NCBI GenBank assembly: GCA_004356825.1
Contig: SMXC01000092.1
Location: 1 to 55,062 of the forward strand
Origin: Caldithrix sp.
GTDB lineage: Bacteria > Zhuqueibacterota > Zhuqueibacteria > Oceanimicrobiales > Oceanimicrobiaceae
DNA length: 55,062 nt
Reading direction: 5' to 3'
In this document: piece by piece, positions 13,308-54,219 of the stretch
Position numbering within the stretch: the stretch's first letter is position 1
Layout of the letters: the number at the start of each line of letters is the position of its first letter
Notes under the pieces: model-generated
Database searches by the model: none
What the model saw: only the letters and a program-made list of their open reading frames with translations
What the model was told of the DNA's origin: nothing
Position numbers and translations under genes: made by a program

Positions 13308-13309
13308 CC

Positions 13310-34253: not shown

Positions 34254-34389
34254 TAATCCTCTTTTGTCATTCGAGCGAGTCCTCCGACTAGCACTCAGCA
34301 TAAACTCCAATACGTTGAGGGGTCTGGTTTAGTAAAAATCAGACCCCCCTTCCCGAAGCGCCGGGTCGAAATGACATTAAAAAACAATG

Positions 34390-34659: not shown

Positions 34660-34672
34660 GTTTCTTTCTCCA

Positions 34673-35443: not shown

Positions 35444-35448
35444 TCCGT

Positions 35449-35964: not shown

Positions 35965-35973
35965 AACTTATCC

Positions 35974-36504: not shown

Positions 36505-36535
36505 AATCAGTCAGTCTATAGGGGTCGTTTAATAT

Positions 36536-37039: not shown

Positions 37040-37060
37040 AATTCTATATCTTTCAATAGG

Positions 37061-37771: not shown

Positions 37772-37772
37772 T

Positions 37773-38552
37773 TTAGTCCTCCTGTTTGGCTTCTGCCATA
37801 GCTTTTCGTTCCCCCGGAGGCAGGTAGGTCACCAATTTGTTCTGAATCACTCTGGGGGACTCCTCGGCCTGAATAGAAAGGACGCCCGTTAAGAGCATTT
37901 CCTTAAATTGAATCTCTTGTTCAGAGCGATGCTTTAACTTGCCGGCTATGGGCAGAAAGAAAAGGTTGGCGAATAAAGCGCCATAAAAAGTGGTGATCAT
38001 GGCCATCGCCATACCGGGACCAACGGCAGCGGGATCTTCCAGGTTCTGCAACATTGCAATTAAACCAATCAGAGTGCCGATCATCCCAAAAGCAGGAGAA
38101 TAGGTTCCCATTGCCGTGAACATCTTCTGGCCGATCTTATGTCTTTGCGCCATGAGCGCCAGCTCTCCATCCATGATTTTGTTTAAATCCTCAGCTTCGG
38201 TTCCGTTGATAACATGCTGCAAAGTGACTTTCAGGAAGTCATCATCGACATTGTTCAGGTCTTCTTCAATCGCCAGCAAGCCGTTTGTTCTGGCCTTTTT
38301 CGAGATATCCACAATTTGTTCGATGTATTTTGACGATGACATGATTTCTTCTTTGAGAACCTTTTGCGATATTTTCATGGCACCGATGACATCTCCCATT
38401 GGGAAATTGACCAGTGTGGCAGCAATTGTTCCCCCAAGAACAATCAGTAATGATGGAATGTCAATGAATGCCATAATGCTACCGCCCATGAACATTGCAC
38501 CTATCACAACTCCCATGCCTGCAACAATACCGACAAGTGTCCCTTTGTCCAT
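37773..38552 (-). CDS. motA: Stator A subunit (PomA/MotP-like)
   Basis: ARTNGLLAIE, PAFGMIGTLIGL, ITTFYG. Confidence 0.96.
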   Translation of the reverse strand: MDKGTLVGIVAGMGVVIGAMFMGGSIMAFIDIPSLLIVLGGTIAATLVNFPMGDVIGAMKISQKVLKEEIMSSSKYIEQIVDISKKARTNGLLAIEEDLNNVDDDFLKVTLQHVINGTEAEDLNKIMDGELALMAQRHKIGQKMFTAMGTYSPAFGMIGTLIGLIAMLQNLEDPAAVGPGMAMAMITTFYGALFANLFFLPIAGKLKHRSEQEIQFKEMLLTGVLSIQAEESPRVIQNKLVTYLPPGERKAMAEAKQED

Positions 38553-38663
38553 GAATTCTATTTCCTTAATTAATTCCGGGCATCACGCCTCTGCTAATCC
38601 AATCCTGGTCAAGGAGGCAAGAGAAGGTGTTGCCCGGAAGTTTATTAAATCCGTCTAATTAAA

Positions 38664-40301: not shown

Positions 40302-40331
40302 GGTGTTGGTCCTCCAAGTTAATTAATGATT

Positions 40332-40386
40332 ATCCACTGCTTCAATCGTTCCACAGTGGAGGACCTCCCCAATGGGGGCCAGTCCC
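40332..40386 (-). ncRNA. Candidate two-hairpin cis-regulatory RNA in the flgE leader
   Basis: GGACU-gg-CCCC-cauu-GGGG-a-GGUCC directly followed by UCCACUGU-ggaacgauugaa-GCAGUGGA; no U tract. Confidence 0.5.
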
Positions 40387-40391
40387 GTTAA

Positions 40392-40781
40392 TTATATTAT
40401 TAAAGCGCTATCTATATTGGTAAAAACTTTACCCATTTCCAGCGGCGATTTCTCGACCGCGGTTATCACAGTCCTATTCTTTATATTGACAATCATCGCC
40501 AGATTGTCCATCACAACCAACCCCTCCTTACCGCCTTTCTCAGCCATGGTCTGCACCGCCTGATTCAGCTTAGAAATATGGTGCTGTGTCAAAACAATGT
40601 TGCGCGAAGCCAGCCGGTCAGAGGCATGAGCGGAAAATTTGACCGCCGGAGCTTGACCCGACAGCTTGCTTTTTAAAACATCAGCAAATGCAGTCCGGCC
40701 GGTTTCCGCCGTTTGACGGACTCCGGAATTAGGTAAAGCCGGTTGGACAGGAATGGAATTTTGTAAATGTTTGATTTCCAT
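40392..40781 (-). CDS. TIGR02530 family flagellar operon protein
   Basis: FADVL, VKFSAHASDRLASRNI, KGGKEGLV, NRTVITAV, VFTNIDSA; between flgD and flgE. Confidence 0.9.
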   Translation of the reverse strand: MEIKHLQNSIPVQPALPNSGVRQTAETGRTAFADVLKSKLSGQAPAVKFSAHASDRLASRNIVLTQHHISKLNQAVQTMAEKGGKEGLVVMDNLAMIVNIKNRTVITAVEKSPLEMGKVFTNIDSALII

Positions 40782-40783
40782 GG

Positions 40784-41503
40784 TTAGCTGCCATTTCCAA
40801 TTGATTCTCTTCTCACTTGACTTTCAGCAGCACCCGGGTTGAAGCCGATTTCAAATACATCAGACATGTTGACTTCAATATCGCCCAGGATCAGCATGGC
40901 AGCGCCGTTATTGTAGCGAATGCCGTCAATCACTCCGGTAGTAAAAGTCAACGCGCCAACATCATTTCCGCTGCCATCTTGAGCGGTAACTGAGAATTGA
41001 TAAACGCCATCAGAAAGTTCATTGCCGGAATTGTCTTTGCCGTCCCATTCCAATGAATGGTCTCCGCTGGTCTGGCCGCTTAACTCTAGAGTCCTTACGA
41101 CAACGCCATTTGCATCGGTAATATTAATTGTTACTTTCTGTGCCGCGGATGCAAGACGGAAATGAATTTCCGTATCCTCGCCAGCACTCTTGTTGAGGGA
41201 GTTGCCGATCGCTTTGATTTTGTTTCCAATCAAGGTGGTTGCCAAGGTATTGTTCAACGCCTGGTTCAGGAGCAAATCCATCTCCAGGTTGTTTTGAAGA
41301 TTGGTGTTGATGTTTTGCAGCTGCTCGAGTGAGCTAAATTGCGCAAGCTGTGCTGCAAAATCTTCCGCTTTGACCGGGCTAAGCGGATCCTGATTTCGCA
41401 ATTGCGCCACAAGGAGTCTTAAAAAATCGTCCTTGCCCAGGGTTGCGTCCGGGCCGGCGCCAAAAAGAGTCTGCGGTTGATTTACCACTGGTGCTATGTT
41501 CAT
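40784..41503 (-). CDS. flgD: Hook cap protein
   Basis: [36 protein letters not shown]. Confidence 0.97.
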
Positions 41504-41556
41504 TGAGTTGTCTCCTTTATTCGAAATGACATTTAGTATCTGTACTTATTTTCATG

Positions 41557-44313
41557 CTATGCTAAAACTTCTATAGAATTATAACCAAAATCCCTTTGCC
41601 TGCTTATCGGGAGCGTTTCTTTTGCATAAGCGGAAACCGGGTGTTCAGAATTCAAATTTTGTTCTCTAAACTCTCTTTCATTTTCTGCAGTCTGCCACTC
41701 ATCAGCATTATCTGATTTTTCATTTTTAACAGACACCTCCAACTTGCCGACTTCAATCCCTTCTTTCAGCATCTGATCCAGAAGCGGTCGAAGCTGGCTT
41801 TCCAGCATTCGTCTAACCTCACTGTTATCAACATTGATATGCAGGTTAATTTTATCTTTGTGCTTCACCGCATCTATCAGAAAACTTCCGAGTTTTTCGA
41901 CATCAAGTTGGATTTGAAGTTTCTGTCGCCCGGTGTTTGATTGCGAGCTGGTGAGTTCCAGAATTTTTTTAATCATTTGTGGCAAATGTGAACGCTCAAC
42001 GGTGCCCGAAGCCATTAATTTGCCACCCAGAACGTCGAAGTTGACATTGTTACTGGTCAACACAGGCTGAATTGCATGCTCACTTTCGCTCAAGTTTGGA
42101 TCAATGTATTCCGCTGAATCACCTTCAATATTTTCGAGAATTTCACCAAGGAATTCCCTGGTGTTGCTTAAGTCATTTTTGAGTTTAAACTTATTTTCCT
42201 GCTGAGCTAATATGCCTCTGTCTTGCCGGGAGTCCTTTCCTCGAACGCTAACTTTACCTTTATCTAATTTATTCGATGGCTTTAACCTGTTGTTGGATAG
42301 TTTGTTGGAACGGTTTTTCACGGGAGTTGCCGGGCCTAATAAGACCTCTATGAGTTCTGTAAATTTCTTCAAGGCAGTCGGCTGGGTCGATTCTTTTGGC
42401 TGTAAAATGGGTTTTTCTTTAGCAGCAGTTTCCAAAGTTTCGTCCACCCGGGAGTCAAGTTTAAGATTCAAAGCTCCTTTGTTCTTTCCAGTTTTAACTT
42501 CTTTGACTTTCAATCCTGATTTTGCGAGATGCTGAGTCAGCCAATCTCTGGCTGGAGATGAATTCGTTTGAAGCAGCACATTTCCATCTTCAACATTTTT
42601 GCTGATCGCGACAGCGATTTTTCCGAAATTCTCAACCTCCATTTGTACCTGAATCTGGTTTTGCCCGGCTTTCGATGAAATTTGCGAAATGGATTCGACT
42701 ACTTCACGGATGCTCTGAATTGCTTGCGAGGTGGTGAGCTTAGAGTTCAGTTTGAACTGCCCTTGAAAGCCTTTGATCTTTTGGCTGGTACTGACCTCTG
42801 TAACCCGGATTTCAAGATTTTGAATCTTTCGCCCCAAACGTTTTGAAAGCAAATTCCTGGCGGAGTCTGAATCTACATTTAGCTTAACAGAGGTTTTTCC
42901 GGCCGAGGTTTCGACATCTGCCTCGATGTCGCCGAGGGAGTCGGTTTGTAATCCAAATTTAAGTTTGCTCGATACTTTCTGAGAAGCTGCAGCAACTGAT
43001 TTGATAACTTTCTCAACTATCTCTACAGCTTGGGACGGTTTGATTTTAGCTCCTGAATTGGCCAGCGGCGCAAAGCTCGATACTCTTTTACCTGCATTTT
43101 CCCCAGCGTTTCTAATAAATATTTTCAAGTCAGATGCTTTTACAACCAGAGCGCTCAATTGTTTTCGAAGCACCTTACCGGCCGATTGAGAACTGACGTC
43201 AGCCTTCAGTTTTATTTTGCCTTGGCCGCTATCAATCTCTACCGATACTTTACCCAATGCGTCTATATTTAAATTCAATAATTGCCTGGGATTTTTAACA
43301 ATTGCATGCGTACCACGAACCTCAGCAATTCTTCTCTGAATTGTTTCCAATGCGTGTCTCATCGAGACCTTAGGTATTTGGCGATCCCTGACCAGACCCT
43401 TCTTGATCTCTATTAATTTGTCCGACGTTTGGATTACTAAGGGCGCAGCCTGCTCAGGTTTTGCTATAATAAATTTGAGGCTATCTTCGGTAAAACCTGT
43501 GGATTTCAGGAATCCAGTCTTGAAATTATCAAGCGTTTGTCTAGATGGCAAACCAACCTGAACCAACAGCTTGCCATTCACCGTTTTAAAATCGATAGAG
43601 ATCTTCCCAATCGACTCAACGTTTAACTCAACTTTCTGCCCCGGGTCATTGGCCTTCACCGGCAGTTTGTTGCTGACCTCAACCCACTCTTTAATCACTC
43701 CAAAAGCTTGAGTGGCAGAGAGCTGACCGTCTAATGCTAACTGCTGGAAGTTGCGGGCTGAAAGCTGATTACTGACGGTTGATTGTCGAGGGTTGATTGC
43801 TGAAAACTGTGAGCTGAAAGCCGATTGCTGAAAACCAAAAACCGACCCCAATTCAACCTGGCCAAATAATGGTGTCAATTCTGCGATTAATCTGTCTGAG
43901 GTTTTGAGCTGCTCCTCATCGAGTCCGACCTTTAATCGATTCTTTACCGGCTCGATTTCGAAAGAAATTTTACCAAGGAATTTGGAGTTATATTGGAAAG
44001 CTAATGGCTTTTGAGATTTACCCGCCTGCTCTTTGAAACTTTGTGCAACTTGTTTGATCGAAAGCAATTCTGAGTGTTCTAAACCGCGGGCCCTAAAATC
44101 GGCGAATTGTTTTGCCATTGAATTCAGAAAGCTCAAGGAAGCCGTTCCCTTTTTATGAGAATTCGGGAGGACGCCAAGACTTGAAGTCATGAGCTGTTGA
44201 AAATTTAGAGACCCCCGTTTCACACCCAAAGTTGCCGCCATATTATGACCGATCTTGGGACTTGCCGCCAGATCCTTTGCTGTCTTTGGAATTTTAGGTA
44301 AGCTGTTCAGCAT
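41557..44313 (-). CDS. fliK: Hook-length control protein, very long, with repeated FliK-C-like modules
   Basis: Position before flgD; C-terminal IQLDVEKLG..INLHINVDNSEVRRMLESQL..LL..GIEVGKLEVSV; five further similar modules. Confidence 0.82.
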   Translation of the reverse strand: MLNSLPKIPKTAKDLAASPKIGHNMAATLGVKRGSLNFQQLMTSSLGVLPNSHKKGTASLSFLNSMAKQFADFRARGLEHSELLSIKQVAQSFKEQAGKSQKPLAFQYNSKFLGKISFEIEPVKNRLKVGLDEEQLKTSDRLIAELTPLFGQVELGSVFGFQQSAFSSQFSAINPRQSTVSNQLSARNFQQLALDGQLSATQAFGVIKEWVEVSNKLPVKANDPGQKVELNVESIGKISIDFKTVNGKLLVQVGLPSRQTLDNFKTGFLKSTGFTEDSLKFIIAKPEQAAPLVIQTSDKLIEIKKGLVRDRQIPKVSMRHALETIQRRIAEVRGTHAIVKNPRQLLNLNIDALGKVSVEIDSGQGKIKLKADVSSQSAGKVLRKQLSALVVKASDLKIFIRNAGENAGKRVSSFAPLANSGAKIKPSQAVEIVEKVIKSVAAASQKVSSKLKFGLQTDSLGDIEADVETSAGKTSVKLNVDSDSARNLLSKRLGRKIQNLEIRVTEVSTSQKIKGFQGQFKLNSKLTTSQAIQSIREVVESISQISSKAGQNQIQVQMEVENFGKIAVAISKNVEDGNVLLQTNSSPARDWLTQHLAKSGLKVKEVKTGKNKGALNLKLDSRVDETLETAAKEKPILQPKESTQPTALKKFTELIEVLLGPATPVKNRSNKLSNNRLKPSNKLDKGKVSVRGKDSRQDRGILAQQENKFKLKNDLSNTREFLGEILENIEGDSAEYIDPNLSESEHAIQPVLTSNNVNFDVLGGKLMASGTVERSHLPQMIKKILELTSSQSNTGRQKLQIQLDVEKLGSFLIDAVKHKDKINLHINVDNSEVRRMLESQLRPLLDQMLKEGIEVGKLEVSVKNEKSDNADEWQTAENEREFREQNLNSEHPVSAYAKETLPISRQRDFGYNSIEVLA
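43757..43840. repeat. 12 x 7-bp degenerate tandem repeat (GCTGAAA/GCTGATT) inside fliK
   Basis: gctgaaa gctgatt actgacg gttgatt gtcgagg gttgatt gctgaaa actgtga gctgaaa gccgatt gctgaaa accaaaa. Confidence 0.75.
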
Positions 44314-44879
44314 TATTTTTTAGTCCGGGCTAATTCATTCATTAGCTTGCCGGCTCGTTCCGGTTTCAACGATTTCAGAAGATTTACCTTGTCCTTTTTC
44401 TTCGCCTTGTCATAAAGTATTTTGACCACTTGATCCGATAAGTTTTCAAGTATCAGACCTAAAACATCGGCTTTCATCGAACTCAAGGTTCTTGATAATT
44501 CTTGAAGTTCCTTATCATTGTTCGCCGCTTTTGCGTTAAAATTTTTAAGTTCTTCAATTTTCTTTTTCAGTTCTTTTTCATTTTTGTTTACCTTTTCGAG
44601 CCGCCATTTCTGCTGCAAAATCATTTCATCGCGTTCTTTCAGTTGCATCACATACTCAGCCAACTGGTTTAACATCCCGCCGACGACCGCCGCCAGGGAA
44701 TCGATTTTTTCAACATAAGAGGAATCGTCGGCTATGATGGCGTCCCGGTGATACTCCGTATAATTGAGAATCGGCACTGCCTCTGTTTTTTTAATGACCG
44801 TGTCCTTACGCAAATAAATAAACGCTACCATGCCGGCGAAGGCTATGAAATAAAAAGATACCCAAAGTACAAGTTTCAT
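44313..44879 (-). CDS. MotE/YlxF-like protein (MgtE-N-like C-terminus)
   Basis: N-terminal TM, coiled coil, LSSMKAD..ILENL..LLKSLKPERAGKL; typical position between fliJ and fliK. Confidence 0.75.
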   Translation of the reverse strand: MKLVLWVSFYFIAFAGMVAFIYLRKDTVIKKTEAVPILNYTEYHRDAIIADDSSYVEKIDSLAAVVGGMLNQLAEYVMQLKERDEMILQQKWRLEKVNKNEKELKKKIEELKNFNAKAANNDKELQELSRTLSSMKADVLGLILENLSDQVVKILYDKAKKKDKVNLLKSLKPERAGKLMNELARTKK

Positions 44880-44944
44880 TTCATGTTCCCTTTAGGACGG
44901 TTACCGGGTCCAGCGCTTGAATCGCTGCAATCGTTCCTGCCCAA

Positions 44945-45382
44945 TTAATTTGACCGATTTCTCTGCCTTGCAATTTCATCAATAAAATCCTGCTCAATTC
45001 TATTTTCTTCGTGAATCGCTTCGACGGTTTTTCTTTCTTTGAGTTTTTCAAGAGCCTTTCTGTCTTTAGATGCCTCCAAAAGGTGCTGCCTTTTCGTCTC
45101 TAAATCTGCCGCCAGACCTGTGATCGTTTTATATTTGTCAGCAACGGCCTGATTAAGCGTTTCAAGATAAGCCTGGTTACCTCTAAACTGATTCACTTCG
45201 GCTTTTTTTAGCCTGTTCATGCTCTGGGTAAAACCATCTCTTTTGTTTTCTAACTGCTCCAATTCTTCGTTCTCAATTTGCAGATGATGCTTTGTACCTG
45301 CGAAATCCTTTTGCCGACTTTTTTCGATCACCTCCCGAACGTCTAAAACTTTTTGCAGGCGAAATTTCTTTTTTGCGTTCAA
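44945..45382 (-). CDS. fliJ: Export protein FliJ
   Basis: KFRLQKVLDVR, RKALEKLKE, EQDFIDE. Confidence 0.93.
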   Translation of the reverse strand: MNAKKKFRLQKVLDVREVIEKSRQKDFAGTKHHLQIENEELEQLENKRDGFTQSMNRLKKAEVNQFRGNQAYLETLNQAVADKYKTITGLAADLETKRQHLLEASKDRKALEKLKERKTVEAIHEENRIEQDFIDEIARQRNRSN

Positions 45383-45445
45383 TCTTCATATCCAAATCAG
45401 GTGTTCGTTCGAGCAATTCGACCCGACACTTGTGGAGTAAAGTAA

Positions 45446-46804
45446 TTATTCTTGTAAATTCATCTTCTCAGTAGCGACAGTACTTTTTGAATTTGACAAC
45501 AGCTCCTCCAACTTTTTCACAGACTCTTCCAGGGTTGTATTTTCGAACATGTCCTGTTTGTTAAAATCCCGAATCTTATCAATCATCGAAATCGCGTAGT
45601 CAATTCGGGGGTTACTACCTTTCACGTAAGCCCCAATATTGATCAAATCTTCCGCCTCCTCATAAGTCGCCAGGATTTCTTTCACCTTATTAACATTTGC
45701 CAAATGCTTTTTTGAAATCACATCAATCATCACCCGGCTGATGCTTTGCAGCACATCAACTGCCGGATATTGGCCTGCAGTTGCCAGTTTTCGGGAAAGG
45801 ACGACATGTCCATCCAGAATTGAGCGGACGGTATCTGCAATCGGGTCATTCATGTCGTCCCCTTCTACCAGAACCGTGTATAAACCGGTAATGCTGCCTT
45901 TTTTGAACTTTCCTGCTCGTTCCAGGAGACGGGGTAAAAAAGCAAAAACAGATGGAGTGTATCCTTTGGTCGTCGGCGGTTCACCAATTGCCAGGCCGAT
46001 TTCTCTCTGCGCCATTGCCACCCGGGTAACCGAATCCATCATCAGCATGACGTTCAGTCCCAGGTTTGCAAAATATTCAGCGATAGCGGTGGCCACCAGC
46101 GCTCCTTTAATCCGCAGTAGTGCCGCCTGATCCGAGGTCACTGCGACGACCACCGATCGTTTTAAACCTTCTTCGCCCAGATCTCTTTCGATAAAATCTC
46201 TAAGTTCGCGGCCCCGTTCGCCGATTAATGCAATCACGTTGACATCGGCGCTTGAGTTGCGGGCAATTATACCCATGGTGACGCTTTTGCCAACGCCGCT
46301 GCCGGCAAAAATGCCAACTCTCTGACCTAATCCGAAAGTAAGTAAGCTGTCAATTACCTGCACACCGGTGGAGATAGCTTCATTAATCCGCTCCCGCTGC
46401 AGAGGGTTTGGCGGCAGGTTATGCACAGGTTGTAAAACCTTGGCGTTAATTGCACCCTTGCCGTCGATGGGTTTACCCGTTCCGTCGACAACTCTTCCCA
46501 GAATTTCAGGGCCGACTGCTACTGAAAACGGCTCATTGGAAACAGAGACGTAACTGCCGGGATGCAGGCCTACCGTTTCTTCAAGTGGCATGAGCAAAAC
46601 ATTGTTGTCTCTAAAACCAACGACTTCTGCAGGTATGTTTTTACCATTTCTGGTTGTAATGCGGCACATTTCGCCAACTGAAGCAACCGGCCCTGCTGAT
46701 TCGATGACCAGCCCGGTAACCTTTACCACTCTGCCAAGCATTTTATAAGGCCGCATGCTTTCTAACTTATCGAAGTATTTGTCAAAACGGGTCGCTGTCT
46801 GCAT
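45446..46804 (-). CDS. fliI: Export ATPase FliI
   Basis: GIFAGSGVGKS, IGERGRE, MDSVTR, GEPPTTKGY. Confidence 0.99.
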   Translation of the reverse strand: MQTATRFDKYFDKLESMRPYKMLGRVVKVTGLVIESAGPVASVGEMCRITTRNGKNIPAEVVGFRDNNVLLMPLEETVGLHPGSYVSVSNEPFSVAVGPEILGRVVDGTGKPIDGKGAINAKVLQPVHNLPPNPLQRERINEAISTGVQVIDSLLTFGLGQRVGIFAGSGVGKSVTMGIIARNSSADVNVIALIGERGRELRDFIERDLGEEGLKRSVVVAVTSDQAALLRIKGALVATAIAEYFANLGLNVMLMMDSVTRVAMAQREIGLAIGEPPTTKGYTPSVFAFLPRLLERAGKFKKGSITGLYTVLVEGDDMNDPIADTVRSILDGHVVLSRKLATAGQYPAVDVLQSISRVMIDVISKKHLANVNKVKEILATYEEAEDLINIGAYVKGSNPRIDYAISMIDKIRDFNKQDMFENTTLEESVKKLEELLSNSKSTVATEKMNLQE

Positions 46805-46812
46805 GATTATTA

Positions 46813-47487
46813 TTATTGAATAAAAAGGCTTTTGATTTCCTGAAATTGCGATTCAATTCTTGCGTCTAATACCCCATAATCAGATTCCACTAAACAATCG
46901 CTCATATTTAGCGTCGGATCTTCTACAATCGAAATTTCGACCGGTTTTTTAATTTGTTTTAGTATTTCTGTTTTATATTTCTCCACCACTTCGCCTGTTT
47001 CCCGATGAACGCGAAGCGTATATTTTGTCGAATTGGAAAACAGCTTCAGGCTCTCTGCAACAACCTGCTTAAGTTTATCCTTGTCACACTTAAGAGTTGA
47101 AAATTCCCTGCTGCCGATAAGTTTTTCCACAACTTGCAGGGCAAATGAAAGTACGAATTGTTCAGAACTTTCAATCAATTCTTCCTGCTGGCTTCGAATC
47201 GACTCTGTTAGACTCGCAAACCGATCAATCTCTTTTTGAATCTCTGCAACTCCCTGCTTGTAACCTTTTTTCTCGCCTGCTTGTAAACCGTCCTGATAAC
47301 TGCTTTCTCTTGTGGTCTTTAGTTTTCTTTGCAACATTTTTAATTGTTTAAGATAATCTTCCGGCTCAGTAAAAGAATCTGCATTTACTTTTGTTTGCAT
47401 TGCCAAGACTGCGACATCATTGCTGTCAAGAGTTGGCACTTTATGATTTTTGATGCCTGCCTTTATCTGTTGTGATTTAATTAGCAT
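46813..47487 (-). CDS. fliH: Export protein FliH
   Basis: GxxxG repeats (GLQAGEKKGYKQG), CLVESDYGVLDARIESQ. Confidence 0.9.
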   Translation of the reverse strand: MLIKSQQIKAGIKNHKVPTLDSNDVAVLAMQTKVNADSFTEPEDYLKQLKMLQRKLKTTRESSYQDGLQAGEKKGYKQGVAEIQKEIDRFASLTESIRSQQEELIESSEQFVLSFALQVVEKLIGSREFSTLKCDKDKLKQVVAESLKLFSNSTKYTLRVHRETGEVVEKYKTEILKQIKKPVEISIVEDPTLNMSDCLVESDYGVLDARIESQFQEIKSLFIQ

Positions 47488-47489
47488 AA

Positions 47490-48506
47490 CTAATCCACAT
47501 ACTCGTCTCCATCGGTCTGACTCAAAGTAATTTCGCCGCGGGTTTCCATCTCTCTGATATTTTCGACAATGTTGACCTGCGCTTCCTCTACTTCGCGGAG
47601 ACGCACCGGACCCATATATTCGATTTCTTCCGCCAAAGCTTCCGACGCCTGCTGCGACATATTGGCGAATATTTTTTCTTTTAAGTCATCGGAGACAACT
47701 TTTAAGGCCATGGCAAGGGATTTGGAGTCAATGTTTTTGAGTATCTTCTGAATATCTTTATCCCGTAAGGTCGTTACATTTTCGAATACGAACATGAGAT
47801 TCTTAATTTCTGTCGCCAACTCCGGATCTTTTTGAATGAGTGTTTCCAAAATGTTGGTGTCAACCCCGCGGCTTGCAGAGTTTAAAATCTCGGCTAATGC
47901 TTTGGCGCCGCCACTTTTGCTCATCCGCGAACCGAAGGTTCCGCCCATTTGAGTCGTTAAAGCTTCCTCGATTTCCTGAAGCAGTTCCGGGGACGTTTTT
48001 CCCATGGTGGCCAGGCGGTAAGCGACCTCGCCTTGTAACTCTGTCGACAACTCGCTGATAATTCCCGCAGCTTGAGCGTATTTCATATTTGCCAGAATCA
48101 AGGCAATGGTCTGCGGATGTTCTTTTTGTAAATAGTTTAGGAGCTCAGCGGGATTAATCGACTGCAGCAATCTGAAACCGGTCACCTCAGTGGCAGATCT
48201 AACTTTTTTAATCAGTTTTTTTGCTCTGTCCAAACCATAGGCGCTTTCGAGCATATCCTGGGCATAAGTCAAACCACCTTTGGTGACAAATTTGTCGGCC
48301 AGCATCATTTCATAGTAATCCAGGACTATCTGGCTGACGATTTCGGATGGCAGGTTCTTTAGTTTAGCGATCTCAATTGTCACTTTCTCGACTTCATCAT
48401 CAGGAAGCAGTTTGAGCAAAGGCACGGATTTTTCTACGCCGATAGCAACAAGAAATACCGCGACTTTCTGAGGTCCTGTGAAAGTTTTAATATTGAATTG
48501 CTGCAT
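47490..48506 (-). CDS. fliG: Rotor protein FliG
   Basis: GPQKVAVFL, EHPQTIALIL, MFVFE, MGPVRLREVEEAQ. Confidence 0.98.
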   Translation of the reverse strand: MQQFNIKTFTGPQKVAVFLVAIGVEKSVPLLKLLPDDEVEKVTIEIAKLKNLPSEIVSQIVLDYYEMMLADKFVTKGGLTYAQDMLESAYGLDRAKKLIKKVRSATEVTGFRLLQSINPAELLNYLQKEHPQTIALILANMKYAQAAGIISELSTELQGEVAYRLATMGKTSPELLQEIEEALTTQMGGTFGSRMSKSGGAKALAEILNSASRGVDTNILETLIQKDPELATEIKNLMFVFENVTTLRDKDIQKILKNIDSKSLAMALKVVSDDLKEKIFANMSQQASEALAEEIEYMGPVRLREVEEAQVNIVENIREMETRGEITLSQTDGDEYVD

Positions 48507-48511
48507 AATCG

Positions 48512-50071
48512 TTATTCATCATCCCCATAAAGCCAATATTGTAAAATGTTTGCCGCCCTTGCTGGCTCCGACTGAGTAAACTCGGTAACATCGCCGGTAA
48601 TTTTTTCTTGCAGCTTTAATCTCTCTTTGGCCTCGTGAGATAATTTCTCGTTGTAATAATCGTCGGCATCATCCTCGGTCAGCATTTTCTGTTTTTTGTC
48701 AGCAGACTCTAAGCTGCTCAAAAGCTGGCCGCGTTGTCTTTTCATGTACTCGTCAAGTCCGAGCTTCTTGAAGAAGGATCGCAGCATAAAAAGCACTAGG
48801 ATAGCTCCGAGTCCCATCAGCGCAAATTTTATGATTTCATTGCGGTTCTCTTCTTGCTCGATCGATTCCAGTAGCTCCTTTTCACGATTAACTGTCGTCT
48901 GGTCAAAAGTCAGTTGGTTGACCACAATCTGATCATTTCGGTCATTTTGAAAACCGACCGAACTTTTGACTATTTCGGTAATCTTTTGAATTTCTTCGAC
49001 GGGACGAGGCACATTAATTTGATTGCCGTCTTGATCGACATCAGTAACACCATTTACAAAAACCGCAATTGAGAGATGCTTTATGTCACCGACACTGTTC
49101 TCGTATTGCTCAGTAACCTTGTTGAGCTCGTAGTTTGTAATCGAATTTTCACGCTGGAAATGAGTTGTGTCTGTACTGCTCGAACGCTCTTCATTTTTCT
49201 CTTCACTGAGCACAGCCGAATTTTCCGGATCTACTTTTTCTGTAGTTCGTCTGATCTTCTCGAAGTTCAAAGCAACAGAAATCTGGATAATTGAGTTGTT
49301 CACTCCAAGGACTTTATCCAACATTGACTGCGCTTTCTTGGCTAAATATTTTTCGACTTTTTGCTGAAGGTCATACTGACTTCGGCTCATGCCAATCTCA
49401 TCATCGTTGGACTCATTGTTTGTAAGGACATTGCCGAATGTGTCAATGATAATGATATTTTCTGTTTTGAGACCTTCAACGCTGCCGGCGATCAGTTGCT
49501 GAATTCCCGAAACCTGCTGTCGCTCTAAAGCAGAACGCGATCTTAGTTTAAGAATAACAGAGGCAGTTGTTTGGTTTTCCTCATCCTCAAACAAAGCTCG
49601 TTCCGGCATCACTAAGTGAACCCGAGCTTTCATCACCGCATCGATTTGATTTATAGTATTTGCCAGTTCGCCTTCAAGCGCACGTTTGAGATTCACTTTT
49701 TGCATGAAATCAGTGAGACCCAAATTATTCTTATCGAACAGTTCATACCCAACGGCGCCGGTGCTGATCATATTTTTACCGGCATATTTTATGCGCAGTT
49801 CATAAACATCCTTTTTCGGAACGAGAACGGTTGTGCCGCCATTTTTTAATTTGTAAGGAATACCGTTGCCTTTCAAATCATCGAGAATGTTGGAGACGTC
49901 TGAGGCATCTAAATTTGAGTACAACAGGCCATACTCCGGCCGGTTTGCCCAGGTCAAAATCATAAACATACAAATGATAGCAATTACCGTGAGTGCGGAA
50001 AAACCAATCTTTTGACCCGGCGTTAGCTGGCTTATTAGTTGCTTAATTTTTAGAATGAGTGCACTATTCAA
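48512..50071 (-). CDS. fliF: MS-ring protein
   Basis: LYSNL, VGYELFD, RALEGELANTI, ARVHLVMP; two TM. Confidence 0.98.
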   Translation of the reverse strand: MNSALILKIKQLISQLTPGQKIGFSALTVIAIICMFMILTWANRPEYGLLYSNLDASDVSNILDDLKGNGIPYKLKNGGTTVLVPKKDVYELRIKYAGKNMISTGAVGYELFDKNNLGLTDFMQKVNLKRALEGELANTINQIDAVMKARVHLVMPERALFEDEENQTTASVILKLRSRSALERQQVSGIQQLIAGSVEGLKTENIIIIDTFGNVLTNNESNDDEIGMSRSQYDLQQKVEKYLAKKAQSMLDKVLGVNNSIIQISVALNFEKIRRTTEKVDPENSAVLSEEKNEERSSSTDTTHFQRENSITNYELNKVTEQYENSVGDIKHLSIAVFVNGVTDVDQDGNQINVPRPVEEIQKITEIVKSSVGFQNDRNDQIVVNQLTFDQTTVNREKELLESIEQEENRNEIIKFALMGLGAILVLFMLRSFFKKLGLDEYMKRQRGQLLSSLESADKKQKMLTEDDADDYYNEKLSHEAKERLKLQEKITGDVTEFTQSEPARAANILQYWLYGDDE

Positions 50072-50091
50072 GGGGCTTTACCTAAATTAGT

Positions 50092-50388
50092 TTAAACCGG
50101 CATCCGGTTAACTTCTTGGTAAGCCTCAAGAAGTTTGTTGCGCATTTCCATCATAAATTGAAAGCTGAGCTGAGCTTCCTGGCCCGCTGCCATTACTTCG
50201 TGAAGATCTATGTTTTTACCAGCGATAAAATCCTTGGTAGATTGCGCCGAAACCTTTTGAAGTTCATCAACTTGATTTATCATCCCCTTTAGAGTATCCG
50301 CGAATTTAGGCGATTCGTTCTTTTTAAGCGGTTGACTATTTTGTTTCGCGAGTTGTGTGATCTGTTGTAAAGCATCAATTTTTGGCAT
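50092..50388 (-). CDS. fliE: Basal body protein FliE
   Basis: DLHEVM, RNKLLEAYQEVNRM. Confidence 0.96.
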   Translation of the reverse strand: MPKIDALQQITQLAKQNSQPLKKNESPKFADTLKGMINQVDELQKVSAQSTKDFIAGKNIDLHEVMAAGQEAQLSFQFMMEMRNKLLEAYQEVNRMPV

Positions 50389-50405
50389 TTTCTCTGACCT
50401 TGAAA

Positions 50406-50702
50406 TTAAATCTTTATATCAATAATTTGCCCCAACGGAGCGGTTTCTTTAGCTGCTTTTTTGTCCGGCTGATAAAACTTTAACATCGCTGCTTTGGCCT
50501 TTTCCACAGGTTCCGACAATTTTATCTGATTCACATGATTCAGTTTTTTCTGACTTGTAGCTTGCGCCTTTCCCCCGTTTGCAAAAATCTTCTGCAAAGG
50601 TGATTGCTCGACCCCGCGGCTTTTTAGCGCCGGCTTTGTTCTGTCAGCCGGTTCAGTCGGCCGGGTAATTGTTGGAAATTGTACCACTTTAATCTCTGGC
50701 AT
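50406..50702 (-). CDS. Small hypothetical protein between flgC and fliE
   Basis: Fills the gap exactly; C-terminal LGQIIDIKI. Confidence 0.7.
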   Translation of the reverse strand: MPEIKVVQFPTITRPTEPADRTKPALKSRGVEQSPLQKIFANGGKAQATSQKKLNHVNQIKLSEPVEKAKAAMLKFYQPDKKAAKETAPLGQIIDIKI

Positions 50703-50713
50703 TAGTTAGCTTT

Positions 50714-51214
50714 CTAAATCTCCAGCGAACGTTTAGCCAAATTCTTTGTTGCATTCATCACCGTGATATTTGCCTCATAGGCCCGGCTTGCGGAAATTAA
50801 CTCCAACATTTCGGTTACCACATTGATTTCCGGATAAGTCACAAACCCTTCCTCATCGGCGTCCGGATGATTCGGTTCATATATTTTCTTAAACACATCT
50901 ATCTCCTTGATTTCGGTTTTGATCCGGCTTGTACCATTCGGGCCAACTCCGGAGGCAGTGTAACTGCGTTTGGTAATATGTTGAGCGCTGGAAGTTTGCA
51001 GTTTAATTCTGGCTCTGTCAAGCGTTCTGGAAAAATGGAACTGCGGTGAGACAGCTTTTCTTGACAAAACTTTCCGTTTGTAGGGCGTACCGTCCAATGT
51101 GCGTGTTGTGTTTGCGTTGGCAATGTTTTCTGCGGTTGCTGAAAGCTGCCTTTTTTCAGCGCTTAGTGCTGAAGCGCTGATATTAAATGTTGAAAAGAAA
51201 TCTCTGATTCCCAT
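50714..51214 (-). CDS. flgC: Rod protein FlgC
   Basis: ENIANANTTR, YEPNHPDAD..G, ASRAYEAN. Confidence 0.97.
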   Translation of the reverse strand: MGIRDFFSTFNISASALSAEKRQLSATAENIANANTTRTLDGTPYKRKVLSRKAVSPQFHFSRTLDRARIKLQTSSAQHITKRSYTASGVGPNGTSRIKTEIKEIDVFKKIYEPNHPDADEEGFVTYPEINVVTEMLELISASRAYEANITVMNATKNLAKRSLEI

Positions 51215-51223
51215 TTTGTTCTC

Positions 51224-51616
51224 CTATCTTGAATGACCGCGAATAGCCGAACGAATAAATTCGTAAGCGCCACTCAATTTTCTTGTTGCGAACTCGAACC
51301 GGATCTGGTTTTTAGCCAACTCCGCCATTTCCTGTTCAATATTTACTTTTTCATTTTGGGTTGAAATTTTTGGCTGGATGCCTAGAACATCGCCGCCAAT
51401 AGTCATGTGCCGCGGGTCACTTTTCACGCCGACCGGTGCGCTTCTTTGCATGGCCCGCTGCAACTGGTTTTCAAAATCTACTTTATAAGGACGGTACCCC
51501 TTGGTTTGAACATTCGCGATATTTTTGGCGATTGCATTGTTTCTTTCCGAGTACGCGCTCAGGCTTTTCTTCAATAATGGCACCGTAGCCATTTTACTCA
51601 ATAGATTGAACGTCAT
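51224..51616 (-). CDS. flgB: Rod protein FlgB
   Basis: NIANVQTKGY, VNIEQEMAELAKNQI; AGGAG RBS before ATG 51616. Confidence 0.95.
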   Translation of the reverse strand: MTFNLLSKMATVPLLKKSLSAYSERNNAIAKNIANVQTKGYRPYKVDFENQLQRAMQRSAPVGVKSDPRHMTIGGDVLGIQPKISTQNEKVNIEQEMAELAKNQIRFEFATRKLSGAYEFIRSAIRGHSR

Positions 51617-51645: not shown

Positions 51646-51662
51646 GGCAAGTAATATGCCAA
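51646..51662 (-). promoter_or_regulatory. sigma54 promoter of the flgB operon
   Basis: TTGGCATATTACTTGCC. Confidence 0.85.
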
Positions 51663-51993: not shown

Positions 51994-53376
51994 CTACTCG
52001 GAGTCGTTTTCAAGTTCCAATCTGTACTGCAGAATTTTAGTCCGAAGTGTTTTGAGAGTAATACCGAGAATTTCAGCGGTTTTGGTTTTGTGATTATTGT
52101 GGCGTTTAAGTGTGCTGCTGATCAGACGTTTTTCCATTTCATTGATAGATAAATCTTCGCTTAGTGCTGAGTGCAGGCTCTTTTTCTGATTGGCTTCCAA
52201 CCAGTGGTCTGGCAGGTGAGTTTTTTTGATTCGGCCGCCCTCACGGCAGCTCAGCACGCTGCGCTGGATGACATTTTCAAGCTCACGAACATTCCCCGGC
52301 CAGTTGTAGTTGGAAAAATGAGCTATAACTTCCTCGTCCACTTCAGTGACATTCTTCGAATATTTCTCAGAATACTTTTTCACGAAATGATTACACAAGA
52401 ATGGAATATCATCTTTACGTTCACGCAATGGCGGAATTCGTACCGAAATTACATCCAGACGGAAAAACAGGTCCTGCCGGAACTTTTCTTCTGCAATTGC
52501 TTTCTGCACATCACAATTTGAAGTAGCAATAATACGCACATCAGTTCGTCTAATCTCGGTACTGCCCACCCTGGTAAATTCTCCCTCTTGCAAAACTCGT
52601 AAGAGTTTGGACTGTAAATGTGTAGGCATTTCAGTGACTTCGTCCAAAAGCAGGGTGCCCTCATGCGCCTCCTCAAAAACTCCCTTCACGGTCCGGATGG
52701 CGCCGGTAAAAGCGCCCTTTTCATGACCAAAGAGTTGACTTTCGATCAGGTTTTCGGGGATGGATGCACAATTCACTTTGATAAACGGTTTCGCTTTTCT
52801 TACGCTGTTATAATGAATGGCCGAGGCGATCAATTCTTTCCCGGTACCGTTTTCGCTTTGAATAAAAACCGCAGCGTCGCTTTCAAAAGCAATTTCAAGC
52901 GACTCGGTAAGTTCTCTAATTTTTTGATTTTCACCAATAAAATTTTTCAGGGAATACTTCTCTTTCAGGGCTCGCCTCAGACTGTTGTTTTCTTCCTCCA
53001 GGTCCTTGGTCTTAAAATATTTTTCAAGGCAAAATTTGATTTCATCTAAAGAAAAGGGTTTGGTGATGTAATCGTAAGCGCCTTTTTTCATCGCCTCAAC
53101 AGCTTGGTCGATGGTGCCGAATGCAGTCATCATAACGACTGGTGTTGAGGGCGATGTTTTTTTAATTTTCTCCAGAACCTCCATTCCGGAAATGGTCGGC
53201 ATGCGGATGTCGGTAAGTACCATATCGAAGGATTGCCGGGCGAGCTGCTCCACTGCTGATTCTCCCTCGGTTACAAGCGTCGCATCAAAATTCCACTTTT
53301 GCAGCGCCTCCTCGAGAGACGAACCGATAAGCGGCTCATCGTCCACGATCATAATTCTTTTTTTGGCGTTCGTCAT
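51994..53376 (-). CDS. sigma54-dependent response regulator (REC-AAA+-HTH; FleR/FlrC/FlgR-like)
   Basis: VDDE, TDIRMP, GHEKGAFTGA, LLDEV, WPGNVRELEN, Fis-type HTH. Confidence 0.95.
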   Translation of the reverse strand: MTNAKKRIMIVDDEPLIGSSLEEALQKWNFDATLVTEGESAVEQLARQSFDMVLTDIRMPTISGMEVLEKIKKTSPSTPVVMMTAFGTIDQAVEAMKKGAYDYITKPFSLDEIKFCLEKYFKTKDLEEENNSLRRALKEKYSLKNFIGENQKIRELTESLEIAFESDAAVFIQSENGTGKELIASAIHYNSVRKAKPFIKVNCASIPENLIESQLFGHEKGAFTGAIRTVKGVFEEAHEGTLLLDEVTEMPTHLQSKLLRVLQEGEFTRVGSTEIRRTDVRIIATSNCDVQKAIAEEKFRQDLFFRLDVISVRIPPLRERKDDIPFLCNHFVKKYSEKYSKNVTEVDEEVIAHFSNYNWPGNVRELENVIQRSVLSCREGGRIKKTHLPDHWLEANQKKSLHSALSEDLSINEMEKRLISSTLKRHNNHKTKTAEILGITLKTLRTKILQYRLELENDSE

Positions 53377-54164
53377 CTGTCCCCCGGTAGAATTACTGTG
53401 ACAGTAATTCCATGTTGATTTTGCTTTAAATGAATTTTGCCCCCGTGTTTCTCAAGAATTAGCCGGCTCGTTGGAAGTCCCAATCCCATGCCATTTGTTT
53501 TCGTTGTATAAAAAGGGTAGAAGGGTTTTTCCTCATTGTCTTCCGCAAGTCCCTGACCTTGATCAGAGATGCATAAGACAATTTGATTCTTTTGCTGTTT
53601 TTCCACCATCGCTATTTTTATCTCGCCGCCTTCCGGCATAAACTCAACTGAATTTTGAAGAATATTTTGTAATCCCTGCAGCATCAAATGTGAATCCAAA
53701 GTCAGAAAGATTTCGTTCATCGGCAAATGCAAAGAAAAGGCGTATTTGTTTTCATCGAGTTTGAATTCTTTTTTAATGTTCTCAATCGCCCTGTGGATGA
53801 TCTCCGAGAAATTACAATTCATCGTTTGCAGAACAACCGGCTTGCTGAATACGATGAGATTCTCTACGATGTTATCGATGCGATCGATACCTTGTAAAAT
53901 TCCCTGAAGGCTGCTTGACTGCATGATTTCCTGGTTATCCGAAAGGAGGTGGGCAAAATTAGCAATCCCGCCTAATGGGTTGCGGATTTCATGTGCCAGG
54001 TTACCGGCCATCTCTTTCAGGTATTCCCGCGGCACGATTTGAGTATCCTGGTAAGCCCCGAGCTGCTGCCACAACTTGCCATATGACTTCTGAATATCTC
54101 CAATCGATGAATTAAAACTTTCGAAGCTTTTTTCTATTTCAGAAATGAGTGTCTTTTCTTCCAT
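53373..54164 (-). CDS. Cytoplasmic histidine kinase without sensor domain (FlgS-like)
   Basis: Short coiled coil, AHEIRNPLGG, DQGQG, PFYTTK..GMGLGL; no TM. Confidence 0.92.
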   Translation of the reverse strand: MEEKTLISEIEKSFESFNSSIGDIQKSYGKLWQQLGAYQDTQIVPREYLKEMAGNLAHEIRNPLGGIANFAHLLSDNQEIMQSSSLQGILQGIDRIDNIVENLIVFSKPVVLQTMNCNFSEIIHRAIENIKKEFKLDENKYAFSLHLPMNEIFLTLDSHLMLQGLQNILQNSVEFMPEGGEIKIAMVEKQQKNQIVLCISDQGQGLAEDNEEKPFYPFYTTKTNGMGLGLPTSRLILEKHGGKIHLKQNQHGITVTVILPGDR

Positions 54165-54192
54165 GATAAGCTACTGTTAGGTGACTGCAATG

Positions 54193-54219
54193 TTATCGAC
54201 GGAAAGTTGGCTTCTCTTA
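54193..54219 (-). promoter_or_regulatory. Putative sigma28 promoter of the kinase/activator pair
   Basis: TAAG-N15-GTCGATAA ending 28 bp before the ATG. Confidence 0.65.

Follow-up and report, generated by a model that had tools for sequence, protein, structure and literature searches.

The window, that is, the whole stretch of 55,062 nucleotides analyzed (contig SMXC01000092.1 of a Caldithrix sp. assembly), carries a flagellar gene cluster whose features are collected in Table 1. Two long runs of co-directional genes each stand behind a motif of the sigma-54 type, as a sequence-only reading of this DNA had claimed for flgB and flgF. The longer run opens with flgB flgC orf98 fliE fliF fliG fliH fliI fliJ orf188 fliK flgD flg_new flgE motA motB and continues with fliL fliN/Y fliO fliP fliQ fliR HD_5 HD_5 flhB flhA flhF orf83 fliA orf79 orf432, which bears out the placement of fliA downstream of the flgB promoter in that reading. 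The ATG at 51616 is the likely start of flgB, because the GTG at 51640 lies just 5 nt beyond the predicted promoter. In the other run, from flgF to flgL, neither flgK nor flgL is preceded by a site of the sigma-28 type.

Table 1. Genes and predicted regulatory features of the flagellar cluster (positions are those of the window).
Feature	Position	Strand	Description
flgF...flgL run	15902..24087	-	gene order
Predicted sigma-54 promoter of flgF-flgG-flgA-flgH-flgI-flgJ-flgN-flgK-flgL	24128..24143	-	TGGCAT-N5-TTGCT
Co-directional run flgB...orf432	24475..51616	-	gene order
orf79	25788..26027	-	small Lys-rich protein directly after fliA
fliA	26043..26807	-	FliA/WhiG family, TIGR02479 212.7 bits (cut-off 189.6)
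Terminator-like hairpin then T-run between flhB and flhA	30337..30381	-	z = -2.2
Predicted sigma-54 promoter of flgB operon	51646..51661	-	TGGCAT-N5-TTGCC
Sigma-54 enhancer-binding response regulator (EBP)	51994..53376	-	REC, AAA+, HTH_8
Soluble, sensor-less histidine kinase	53373..54164	-	263 aa; HisKA + HATPase_c
Predicted sigma-28-type promoter (sequence match)	54193..54219	-	TAAG (-35) 54219-54216; 15-nt spacer 54215-54201; GTCGATAA (-10) 54200-54193

Upstream of flgB lie the genes of a two-component pair. The kinase has its H-box, HEIRNP, at residue 58 and no membrane segment, and the EBP has Asp56 in its REC domain, GAFTGA at 221 in its AAA+ domain and a helix-turn-helix of the HTH_8 family. 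The EBP gene overlaps the stop codon of the kinase gene by 4 nt, and the two are translationally coupled. Kinase and EBP stay together at 13 of 14 loci in relatives, a sigma-54 motif is found at the same place before flgB in 9 relatives, and the order EBP, sigma-54 motif, flgB recurs in nine of the ten loci that reach far enough (in the exception, G011, flgB was not found). Neither protein reaches the NCBIfam cut-offs for known flagellar regulators (FlgS, 74.6 vs 600 bits; FlgR, 323.4 vs 750; FlbD, 321.4 vs 750); their top family matches are AtoS/AtoC-like, likewise under cut-off. No FleQ-type master regulator scored above cut-off, and there are two sub-threshold matches to the Pfam FleQ domain. 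Judging by adjacency alone, this EBP would serve the flgB and flgF promoters, whose sigma-54 motifs are conserved; EBPs are numerous in the genome, and sigma-54-like sites occur in its intergenic regions 66 times.

At the far end of the flgB run, fliA is directly followed by orf79, which matches no family and keeps that position in all eight relatives examined. Transcription from the flgB promoter may not fully drive fliA, because of the terminator-like hairpin between flhB and flhA, which is a possible site of attenuation before flhA-fliA. The hairpin was found in the genus of the window only (G001, the other genome of the genus, has it); of five relatives examined, three have almost no gap between flhB and flhA, and G004 has a longer one. 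Generic scans for sigma-70 promoters and terminators across the cluster did no better than on shuffled sequences.

The sigma-28 promoter consensus of E. coli/Salmonella and B. subtilis consists of a -35 element TAAA(G), a spacer of about 15 nt and a -10 element GCCGATAA. In the 390-nt intergenic region upstream of the kinase gene, 28 nt before its ATG, stands TAAG-N15-GTCGATAA, present as first read from the sequence and matching 10 of the 12 specified bases of that consensus. A genome-wide scan had been suggested as a check; it turned up a single exact match to all 12 specified bases in the assembly of 4.36 Mb, but base composition alone predicts 0.75 occurrences per genome, so uniqueness is no proof by itself. 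The weight of the case for a promoter lies in the position of the motif and in its conservation. Within the genome, a looser form, TAA[AG]-N14-16-NNCGATA, occurs in the 200 nt preceding 43 of 3573 crude open reading frames (1.2%), and the strict form in those preceding 8. Scored with a position weight matrix (PWM) built on the sites of nine relatives, the kinase site, at 21.4, is third best genome-wide, and the runner-up on the minus strand within the cluster reaches 10.9.

A query of genome contigs with the kinase gave a single distant, unrelated match, and the orthologues considered here were taken from a separate genome search. The loose motif stands 27-194 nt upstream of 10 of 14 orthologous kinase genes in relatives, as compared with the background of 1.2%, and the conservation that the earlier reading had looked to is thereby found. 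These relatives are kin, so the ten cases are not independent events. The site of an eleventh orthologue is weaker (PWM 12.6, empirical p 0.007), and three (G014, G022 and G003) have no motif. The form common to the family is T(T/A)AAGTG-N12-13-G(T/A)CGATAA. The same-genus genome keeps the -35 and -10 elements and differs in the spacer; the two genomes also share a conserved block of some 40 nt ahead of the -35 element. Otherwise, the upstream sequences of the orthologues cannot be aligned, and the upstream neighbor genes differ from locus to locus. As a control, a gene encoding an RR-HATPase_c_2 protein, which carries the motif in this genome, has it in none of seven orthologues. It is thus highly improbable that the kinase motif is a chance match with no function: the composition of the genome would readily supply one exact motif, and the other single matches within it are not conserved, but the kinase motif persists at most orthologous loci while the spacer sequence and the distance to the start codon vary around it. 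The site is best described as a predicted promoter of the sigma-28 family, the sole recognizable promoter of the kinase/activator operon.

Flagellin genes in the family carry the same type of site, (T/C)AAGTG-N12-13-G(T/A/C)CGATAA. A -10 element of the CGATA type with a -35 element (T/C)AAG precedes seven of the ten flagellin genes examined in five genomes; of the other three, two stand second in a tandem, and the third has a locus that ends 74 nt upstream. In G015 (4.7 Mb), the exact sequence AAGTG-N12-13-GWCGATAA occurs three times, before the kinase gene, a flagellin gene and an EAL-HDOD gene. In none of five genomes did the consensus form TAAR-N14-16-GCCGATAA outnumber its reversed control. 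An attempt to use GCCGATAA and G(T/A)CGATAA as motif classes marking two sigma-28 paralogues foundered on counts that were too small, and an element repeated in intergenic regions was dropped from consideration at 2-10 exact copies in the genome.

Other promoters were sought before the kinase gene. No sigma-70 consensus appears on the coding strand upstream of it, and a simple pattern search of 15 loci found neither a sigma-70 consensus (within 350 nt) nor a sigma-54 consensus. None of the public runs listed as containing the region is recorded as RNA. In two runs labeled "metatranscriptomic WGA", the contigs cover genes and intergenic DNA alike and carry no information on transcript start, strand or level; of two RNA-seq runs, one gave a single contig of 197 nt in flgB/flgC and the other gave none.

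The conservation of the predicted sigma-28-family promoter makes plausible the topology in which sigma-28 leads to kinase and EBP, these to sigma-54 promoters, and these in turn to fliA. Suppose that the promoters are used as predicted, that the sigma factor at the sigma-28-type site is the FliA of the cluster, that the EBP acts on its neighbors and that co-transcription extends to fliA. The sigma-28-family promoter would then transcribe the kinase/EBP operon, and the sensor-less kinase would phosphorylate the EBP, which would open the flgB and flgF promoters to sigma-54. Transcription from flgB would continue, at least in part, through flhA and flhF to fliA, and FliA would read both the flagellin promoters and the promoter of the kinase/activator operon. 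Flagellar synthesis would in this way raise the level of its own starting activator, a positive feedback in two steps. If FliA is held by a FlgM-like factor encoded after fliD, the feedback would fire late, after completion of the hook-basal body, rather than at the start. We give this positive loop, the best of the readings, a probability of about one half. Counted against the loop are the kinase motif kept by G005, a genome with no flagellar FliA, the three motif-free orthologues among 14, the hairpin and a second FliA/WhiG paralogue.

The sequence-only reading went further and proposed an inverted hierarchy, in which FliA, unrestrained in an organism lacking FlgM, acts early rather than last. 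Part of its basis holds: the Pfam FlgM model finds no match in the cluster, as that reading had noted, nor in the whole assembly (94.7% complete) or in the same-genus genome, and the kinase gene shows no promoter of the sigma-70 type upstream. The lack of FlgM probably does not extend to the organism, however. In at least seven relatives, including the same-genus G001, a conserved FlgM-like protein of 114-127 aa is encoded after fliD and a chaperone-like gene. The search for FlgM was thus negative in the assembly itself and produced a candidate in relatives, one that stays below cut-off: the Pfam match spans nearly the whole model with E-values of 4e-4 to 0.01 for two proteins scanned and 0.002-0.05 in whole-genome scans, and the scores (16.5-21.1 bits for the two proteins, up to 23.1 in genome scans) fall short of the 25-bit cut-off of PF04316. 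When the alignment of the FlgM-like proteins was run as a profile against solved structures, FlgM was not among the matches. The assembly lacks fliS and fliD as well, i.e., the entire block to which the FlgM-like gene belongs, and this absence is most likely an assembly gap, because G001, whose proteins are 86-90% identical to those of the window, has the FlgM-like gene after fliD. The candidate probably holds FliA back. Moreover, fliA lies at the far end of a run driven from a sigma-54-type promoter and so could not come first without other input, and FliA keeps a late role, because flagellin genes share the promoter type of the kinase. The inverted order is for these reasons very unlikely.

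The original proposal of a loop fares better, in that the promoter is conserved, but it did not consider that a different sigma factor may read it. A FliA/WhiG paralogue encoded on another contig (C172:6915-7679), 33% identical to the FliA of the cluster, outscores it on the FliA/WhiG model (262 vs 212.7 bits) and is found in most genomes of the family. It has a sigma-54-type motif, TGGCATAGAACTTGCG, 74 nt upstream and adjoins a gene for a response-regulator EBP with a sigma-54 motif of its own. This paralogue, rather than the FliA of the cluster, could read the kinase promoter, giving a linear cascade from the second EBP and sigma-54 to the sigma-28 paralogue, then to the kinase and EBP, and through sigma-54 to the flagellar genes and FliA, which would serve flagellin. 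Such a cascade would explain how the system first switches on. G005, which has the paralogue and neither an FlhA match nor a flagellar FliA, still has the kinase orthologue, intact and with its motif (score 20.8). Perhaps that site is the remnant of a recent deletion, because flgN and a TPR gene directly follow the kinase gene there. Also, G016 has a strong site and no paralogue was found (the genome is 89% complete), and the AAGTG...GWCGATAA form, common to flagellin promoters, is not enriched in three relatives with the paralogue only (AAGTG-N12-13-GWCGATAA matches 0, 1 and 1 times in the three without flagellar FliA, outside any motility context). On balance, the linear cascade is possible though unlikely. 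It is distinctly less probable still that the sigma-28 site provides merely an auxiliary boost and that the kinase and EBP are expressed mainly from a housekeeping promoter that escaped recognition, as PD3 stands beside PA in the B. subtilis fla/che operon. The intergenic region leaves room for one, the block conserved within the genus upstream of the -35 element may mark something, a pure loop requires some starting input, and the housekeeping consensus searched may not be that of this phylum, so that a further promoter may be there; against this, the simple pattern drew a blank at all loci, and it is the sigma-28 site that the family has conserved. The opposite idea, that the flagellar regulon of this family has no housekeeping-sigma entry at all, is doubtful as well. 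A closed loop of sigma-28, kinase/EBP and sigma-54 would in that event form a heritable on/off motility switch, ignited by the non-flagellar, WhiG-like paralogue, itself under sigma-54/EBP control and reading the same promoter. If true, the master switch would be composed solely of alternative sigma factors.

To our knowledge, flagellar hierarchies have been worked out in detail in few phyla only, and a search of open-access literature (main texts) brought up none that deals with the regulation of flagella in Calditrichota or Caldithrix. The present outline would be the first based on sequence for an uncultured marine-sediment lineage: a Bacillus-like mega-operon with fliA near its end, driven by sigma-54, and a two-component activator behind a conserved, predicted sigma-28 promoter. 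Motility in this organism probably feeds back positively on its own expression, and if the loop is real, one would predict bistable or self-sustaining motility, made from a different set of parts than in Bacillus.

Cytoplasmic kinases paired with REC-AAA+-HTH activators beside flagellar genes, and rod and hook genes under sigma-54 promoters, are familiar from the general scheme of FlgSR of Campylobacter and Helicobacter, FlrBC of Vibrio and FleSR of Pseudomonas (PMC3930126; PMC7064773). The pair considered here differs from FlgSR and FlbD in scores far under the NCBIfam cut-offs. It also appears to stand behind a sigma-28-type promoter rather than one dependent on sigma-70 or on FlrA/FleQ, and the export apparatus, the MS ring and fliA as well lie behind a sigma-54-type promoter. 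No description of a dedicated sigma-28 promoter directly before a gene of the flgS/flrB/fleS type was found in the open-access literature (main texts).

The sequence-only reading had taken it as known that such pairs act above sigma-28, and as a general rule this is too simple, given the sigma-28-dependent feedback described in P. putida and B. subtilis. In P. putida, FliA-dependent read-through from PfliC into fleQ-fleS-fleR is called positive feedback by the authors (bioRxiv 10.1101/2021.08.29.457346). There, as predicted here, FliA-dependent transcription reaches the sigma-54 activators of early flagellar genes, but it does so by read-through from a flagellin promoter, with fleQ and fleSR having promoters of their own, whereas the Caldithrix pair has a dedicated predicted sigma-28-type promoter immediately ahead of the kinase gene, in a genome where no master regulator of the FleQ type scored above cut-off.

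In architecture the cluster resembles that of Bacillus, where the fla/che operon runs flgB flgC fliE...flhB flhA flhF, with the sigma-28 gene (sigD) near the end. The same long-operon order is found in the window. Work on B. subtilis describes a sigmaD-dependent promoter PD3 of fla/che and a sigmaD-dependent swrA promoter, with SwrA-DegU~P activating PA of fla/che, and it links the resulting positive loop through an activator gene to bistable motility (PMC3874003). Since sigma-28 feedback onto early regulators is thus already in print, the general flagellar scheme is not overturned by the circuit proposed here. The Caldithrix circuit, drawn from genomes alone, has no recognizable housekeeping promoter beside its sigma-28 site. 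Its operon promoter is of the sigma-54 type, in place of sigmaA, and its activator is a two-component kinase with an AAA+ EBP, in place of SwrA and DegU. In both organisms, a sigma-28-type promoter precedes the activator of the long operon and, in Caldithrix by prediction, closes a positive loop.

Directly before the gene for the histidine kinase that is coupled to a sigma-54 activator (an enhancer-binding protein, EBP) lies the sigma-28-type motif that the sequence-only reading had described, 28 nt from the ATG. It scores 21.4 with a position matrix, against 10.9 for the next best coding-strand site in the whole cluster. The matrix was made from nine relatives' sites, and for those nine only the match to a loose form of the motif counts; the site of Caldithrix sp. 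itself, that of the same-genus genome, and those of the last four loci did not enter into it. Across the cluster, flgK, flgL, and motA are not preceded by any site of the sigma-28 type. In the 390-nt region 5' of the kinase the coding strand has no sigma-70 consensus, and within 350 nt upstream in 15 loci there is neither a sigma-70-like nor a sigma-54-like pattern (these were simple patterns, from which the housekeeping promoters of this phylum may depart). The kinase site is probably a working sigma-28-family promoter, with a probability of about 0.8.

The 12 specified bases occur once in the Caldithrix sp. genome, where composition predicts 0.75 occurrences, so the single occurrence means little by itself, and whatever weight the site has comes from its position and conservation rather than from uniqueness. 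Of 3573 crude ORFs of this genome, 43 (1.2%) have the loose form, TAA[AG]-N14-16-NNCGATA, in the 200 nt before them, and 8 have the strict form. Conservation before orthologous kinases, which the sequence-only reading had proposed as a check, is found: a search of 40 relatives' genomes gave 14 full-length kinases (42-86% identity), and the loose motif stands 27-194 nt before the start in 10 of them, against that background of 1.2%. An eleventh, in G012, has CAAGTC-N-GACGATAT (matrix score 12.6, empirical p 0.007). Three others (G014, G022, and G003, the most distant) showed no motif before the kinase. The relatives are kin, and the ten are not independent trials. Despite this, we would argue for selection on the motif, because the genes 5' of the kinase vary from locus to locus, as do the distances from motif to start, and because the -35 and -10 elements are identical in Caldithrix sp. 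and its same-genus relative while 5 of the 15 spacer bases differ. The upstream regions of these two align only over the proximal 100 nt or so.

Two controls bear on the motif. An RR-HATPase_c_2 gene with a good motif (contig C339 of Caldithrix sp.) has seven orthologues, none with the motif within 450 nt. Flagellin genes, by comparison, have a CGATA-type -10 and a (T/C)AAG -35 in 7 of 10 cases (5 genomes); of the three without, two are second in a tandem pair and one belongs to a locus cut 74 nt upstream. In the 4.7 Mb of G015, exact AAGTG-N12-13-GWCGATAA occurs three times: before the kinase, a flagellin gene, and an EAL-HDOD gene.

The window is contig C213 of an assembly of 4.36 Mb (358 contigs, 94.7% complete), and its minus strand has one flagellar cluster, running from 54164 to about 15900 as judged by Pfam, NCBIfam, and gene gaps. 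Neither a membrane segment nor a sensor domain occurs in the 263 aa of the kinase, whose H-box, HEIRNP, is at residue 58; the regulator combines Asp56 with GAFTGA (at 221) and an HTH_8 domain.

Features of the flagellar cluster in the window and of related loci on other contigs of Caldithrix sp.
Feature	Position	Strand	Remark
Sigma-28-type site before kinase	TAAG 54219-54216; GTCGATAA 54200-54193	-	15 nt between elements
Histidine kinase, 263 aa	54164-53373	-	Pfam/NCBIfam
Sigma-54 enhancer-binding response regulator, 460 aa	53376-51994	-	4-nt overlap with kinase stop
Sigma-54 promoter before flgB	51661-51646	-	TGGCAT-N5-TTGCC; motif scan
flgB, flgC, orf98, fliE, fliF, fliG, fliH, fliI, fliJ, orf188, fliK		-	follow regulator
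orf98	50406-50702	-	small, Lys-rich
flgD, TIGR02530 gene, flgE, motA, motB, fliL, fliN/Y, fliO, fliP, fliQ, fliR		-	follow fliK
Two HD_5 genes, flhB, flhA, flhF, orf83, fliA, orf79, orf432		-	follow fliR
HD_5 (HD-GYP-like) paralogue pair	31513-33451	-	between fliR and flhB
Hairpin and T-run	30381-30337		just 3' of flhB
orf83	26800-27051	-	small, membrane; overlaps flhF stop and fliA start
fliA	26807-26043	-	
orf79	25788-26027	-	small, Lys-rich; directly 3' of fliA
Sigma-54 promoter before flgF	24143-24128	-	TGGCAT-N5-TTGCT; motif scan
flgF, flgG, flgA, flgH, flgI, flgJ, flgN, flgK, flgL		-	last run, after a 387-nt gap
TPR-glycosyltransferase genes	11758-14965		end of cluster
Sigma-28-type site	7026-7054	+	TTAAG-N-GTCGATAT; matrix score 16.4
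ORF, 199 aa	7103-7702		HATPase_c sole domain; 48 nt after the site
FliA/WhiG-family paralogue, 254 aa	C172:6915-7679 (locus region 5116-7679)		TIGR02479
fliM	C36:1969-2544		outside cluster
Flagellin promoter (locus L091)	C220:410-438	+	GCAAGTG...GTCGATAA
ORFs 3' of flagellin genes	C220:2580-6173		

The sigma-54 promoters that the sequence-only reading had placed before flgB and flgF were both recovered by motif scan, and the position of the former makes ATG 51616, with AGGAG in front, the most likely start of flgB rather than GTG 51640. Kinase and EBP are adjacent in 13 of 14 loci, and the order EBP, TGGCA(C/T)-N5-TTGC, flgB, flgC recurs in all nine loci that extend far enough and contain flgB; in a tenth (G011), flgB was not found within 4.6 kb. 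The fliA gene does lie in the run downstream of the flgB promoter, as had been claimed, with the flagellar genes up to it co-directional and separated by gaps of at most 154 nt. In the window's own genus a hairpin with a T-run follows flhB (-29.4 kcal/mol over the 96-nt stretch, z = -2.2); among five relatives, G001 (of the same genus) has the hairpin, G004 a gap of about 140 nt, and G012, G002, and G015 an almost contiguous flhB-flhA. Given the co-directional genes, the small gaps, and the near-contiguity of flhB and flhA in relatives, the family as a whole is likely to co-transcribe flgB to fliA, with possible attenuation in this one genus. Scans of the cluster recognised no alternative promoter before flhA or fliA.

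Several neighbouring features deserve mention. The HD_5 pair interrupts the flagellar export genes. orf83, kept before fliA in the 8 relatives examined, occupies the slot where many bacteria have flhG. orf79, whose position is kept in 8 of 8 relatives, has a conserved N-terminus, M-x-D-Y-G-x-x-L-G-V-P, and a D-x-V-x-I-S stretch; it shares with orf98 a C-terminal end, G-x-x-(I/V)-D-(I/V)-x-x, and neither has a family match. For the ORF at 54555-54884, a frameshift in the window or a difference between strains is possible: contigs of two public runs lack one base at 54875 and have an extra T after 54904. A PorV homologue was also encountered, which fits the wider Bacteroidota-related group. Opposite the flagellin promoter of Caldithrix sp. 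is a sigma-54-like TGGCAT-N5-TTGCC directed away from the flagellin genes; since its GG is not kept in the same-genus genome, the overlap may be coincidence. The methyltransferase-, aminotransferase-, and glycosyltransferase-like ORFs 3' of the flagellin genes (also G001:C299, locus L090) are likely a flagellin glycosylation island.

Caldithrix sp. has, besides the FliA of the cluster, a paralogue on contig C172, 33% identical to it and the better match to TIGR02479 (262 vs 212.7 bits). The paralogue gene has TGGCATAGAACTTGCG, of the sigma-54 type, 74 nt upstream, a response-regulator EBP gene with its own sigma-54 motif on the 5' side, and GAF and RR-PAS-HisKA genes on the 3' side. Most of the family's genomes carry it, some without flagellar genes and three (G007, G010, and G018) with no match to flagellar FliA; cluster-type FliA is restricted to genomes with a kinase orthologue. 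The kinase promoter could be read by the paralogue instead of by cluster FliA, and G005 would fit this: the genome (99% complete, 70 contigs) has no FlhA match and no cluster-type FliA, and it keeps an intact kinase orthologue whose motif scores 20.8. With flgN and a TPR gene directly 3' of the kinase (loci L032 and L061), the place resembles a scar left by deletion of the flagellar cluster, and its site may be in use or a relic. The form of the motif at the kinase, however, is common to flagellin promoters, which counts for cluster FliA. Also, the exact pattern is absent from G018 and matches once each in G010 and G007, in one case before hemA and in the other within a gene on the opposite strand, and G016 (89% complete) has a strong kinase site and no paralogue that could be found.

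The cluster is indeed without flgM, as had been noted, and Pfam FlgM finds nothing in the whole Caldithrix sp. assembly. Extending that absence to the organism is not supported. Scanned over the 40 relatives, the same model gives matches, all sub-threshold (E 0.002-0.05), in at least 11 of the family's genomes, to open frames 115-127 aa long; the search for FlgM elsewhere is negative at home and yields sub-threshold candidates in relatives. Seven such sequences (six extracted and the same-genus copy) align well and are 51-66% identical to the first, and the two proteins scanned cover nearly the whole model (E 4e-4 and 0.01, under the 25-bit cut-off). In G004, G012, G015, and G001, the gene lies downstream of a FliD-size ORF (Pfam FliD_C in both of those scanned) and a chaperone-like gene of 123-130 aa; one G001 contig holds two FliS-like genes, fliD, the chaperone-like gene, and the FlgM-like gene. 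Most simply, this block sits in the unassembled 5% of the Caldithrix sp. genome, since the five G001 proteins have no tblastn match in the assembly at E 1e-3, nor do Pfam FliS and FliD_C, though identity between G001 proteins and the window's is otherwise 86-90%. Searched as a profile against solved structures, the FlgM-like family returned no FlgM match, and it stands as a candidate FlgM only.

The circuit would run as follows. A sigma-28-family holoenzyme would transcribe the kinase/EBP operon, as the conserved motif suggests; the phosphorylated EBP, by adjacency and conserved synteny, would open the flgB and flgF promoters; the transcript from flgB would, from gene order, extend to fliA; and FliA would read the kinase/EBP promoter and those of flagellin, where the motif is present and its use presumed. 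We put positive feedback through cluster FliA at even odds, and the loop of the sequence-only reading is plausible but unproven. The inverted hierarchy that went with it, FliA acting early and free of FlgM, finds no support, given the FlgM-like gene in relatives and the likely assembly gap. If the FlgM-like protein acts as FlgM does elsewhere, feedback would come late, after completion of the hook-basal body, and would sustain or restart the early genes without inverting the sequence of expression. The loop might be ignited by basal transcription, by a promoter that went unrecognised, or by the sigma-28 paralogue.

The topology of such a circuit is not new. In B. subtilis (PMC3874003), sigD is found close to the end of the fla/che operon and SigmaD drives PD3(fla/che) and a swrA promoter, while the main fla/che promoter is activated by SwrA with DegU~P; the authors tie these loops to a bistable motility switch. 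For P. putida, positive feedback on early regulators is described, by read-through from PfliC into fleQ-fleS-fleR that depends on FliA (bioRxiv 10.1101/2021.08.29.457346). A review from 2014 on RpoN-dependent flagellar regulation (PMC3930126) has, in the portion consulted, no comparable case, nor did a search of the main texts of the available literature yield one. The kinase and regulator would work like FlgSR, FlrBC, or FleSR, and with scores far under those curated cut-offs they are not assigned to these families. Caldithrix sp. resembles B. subtilis in its mega-operon and differs in having it behind a sigma-54 promoter, with a two-component EBP as the presumed activator. What appears to be new is the way the parts are combined: sigma-54 over a mega-operon of the Bacillus kind, a two-component EBP, and, immediately 5' of the kinase, a dedicated sigma-28 site that is the sole recognisable promoter there and is conserved across an uncultured bacterial family.
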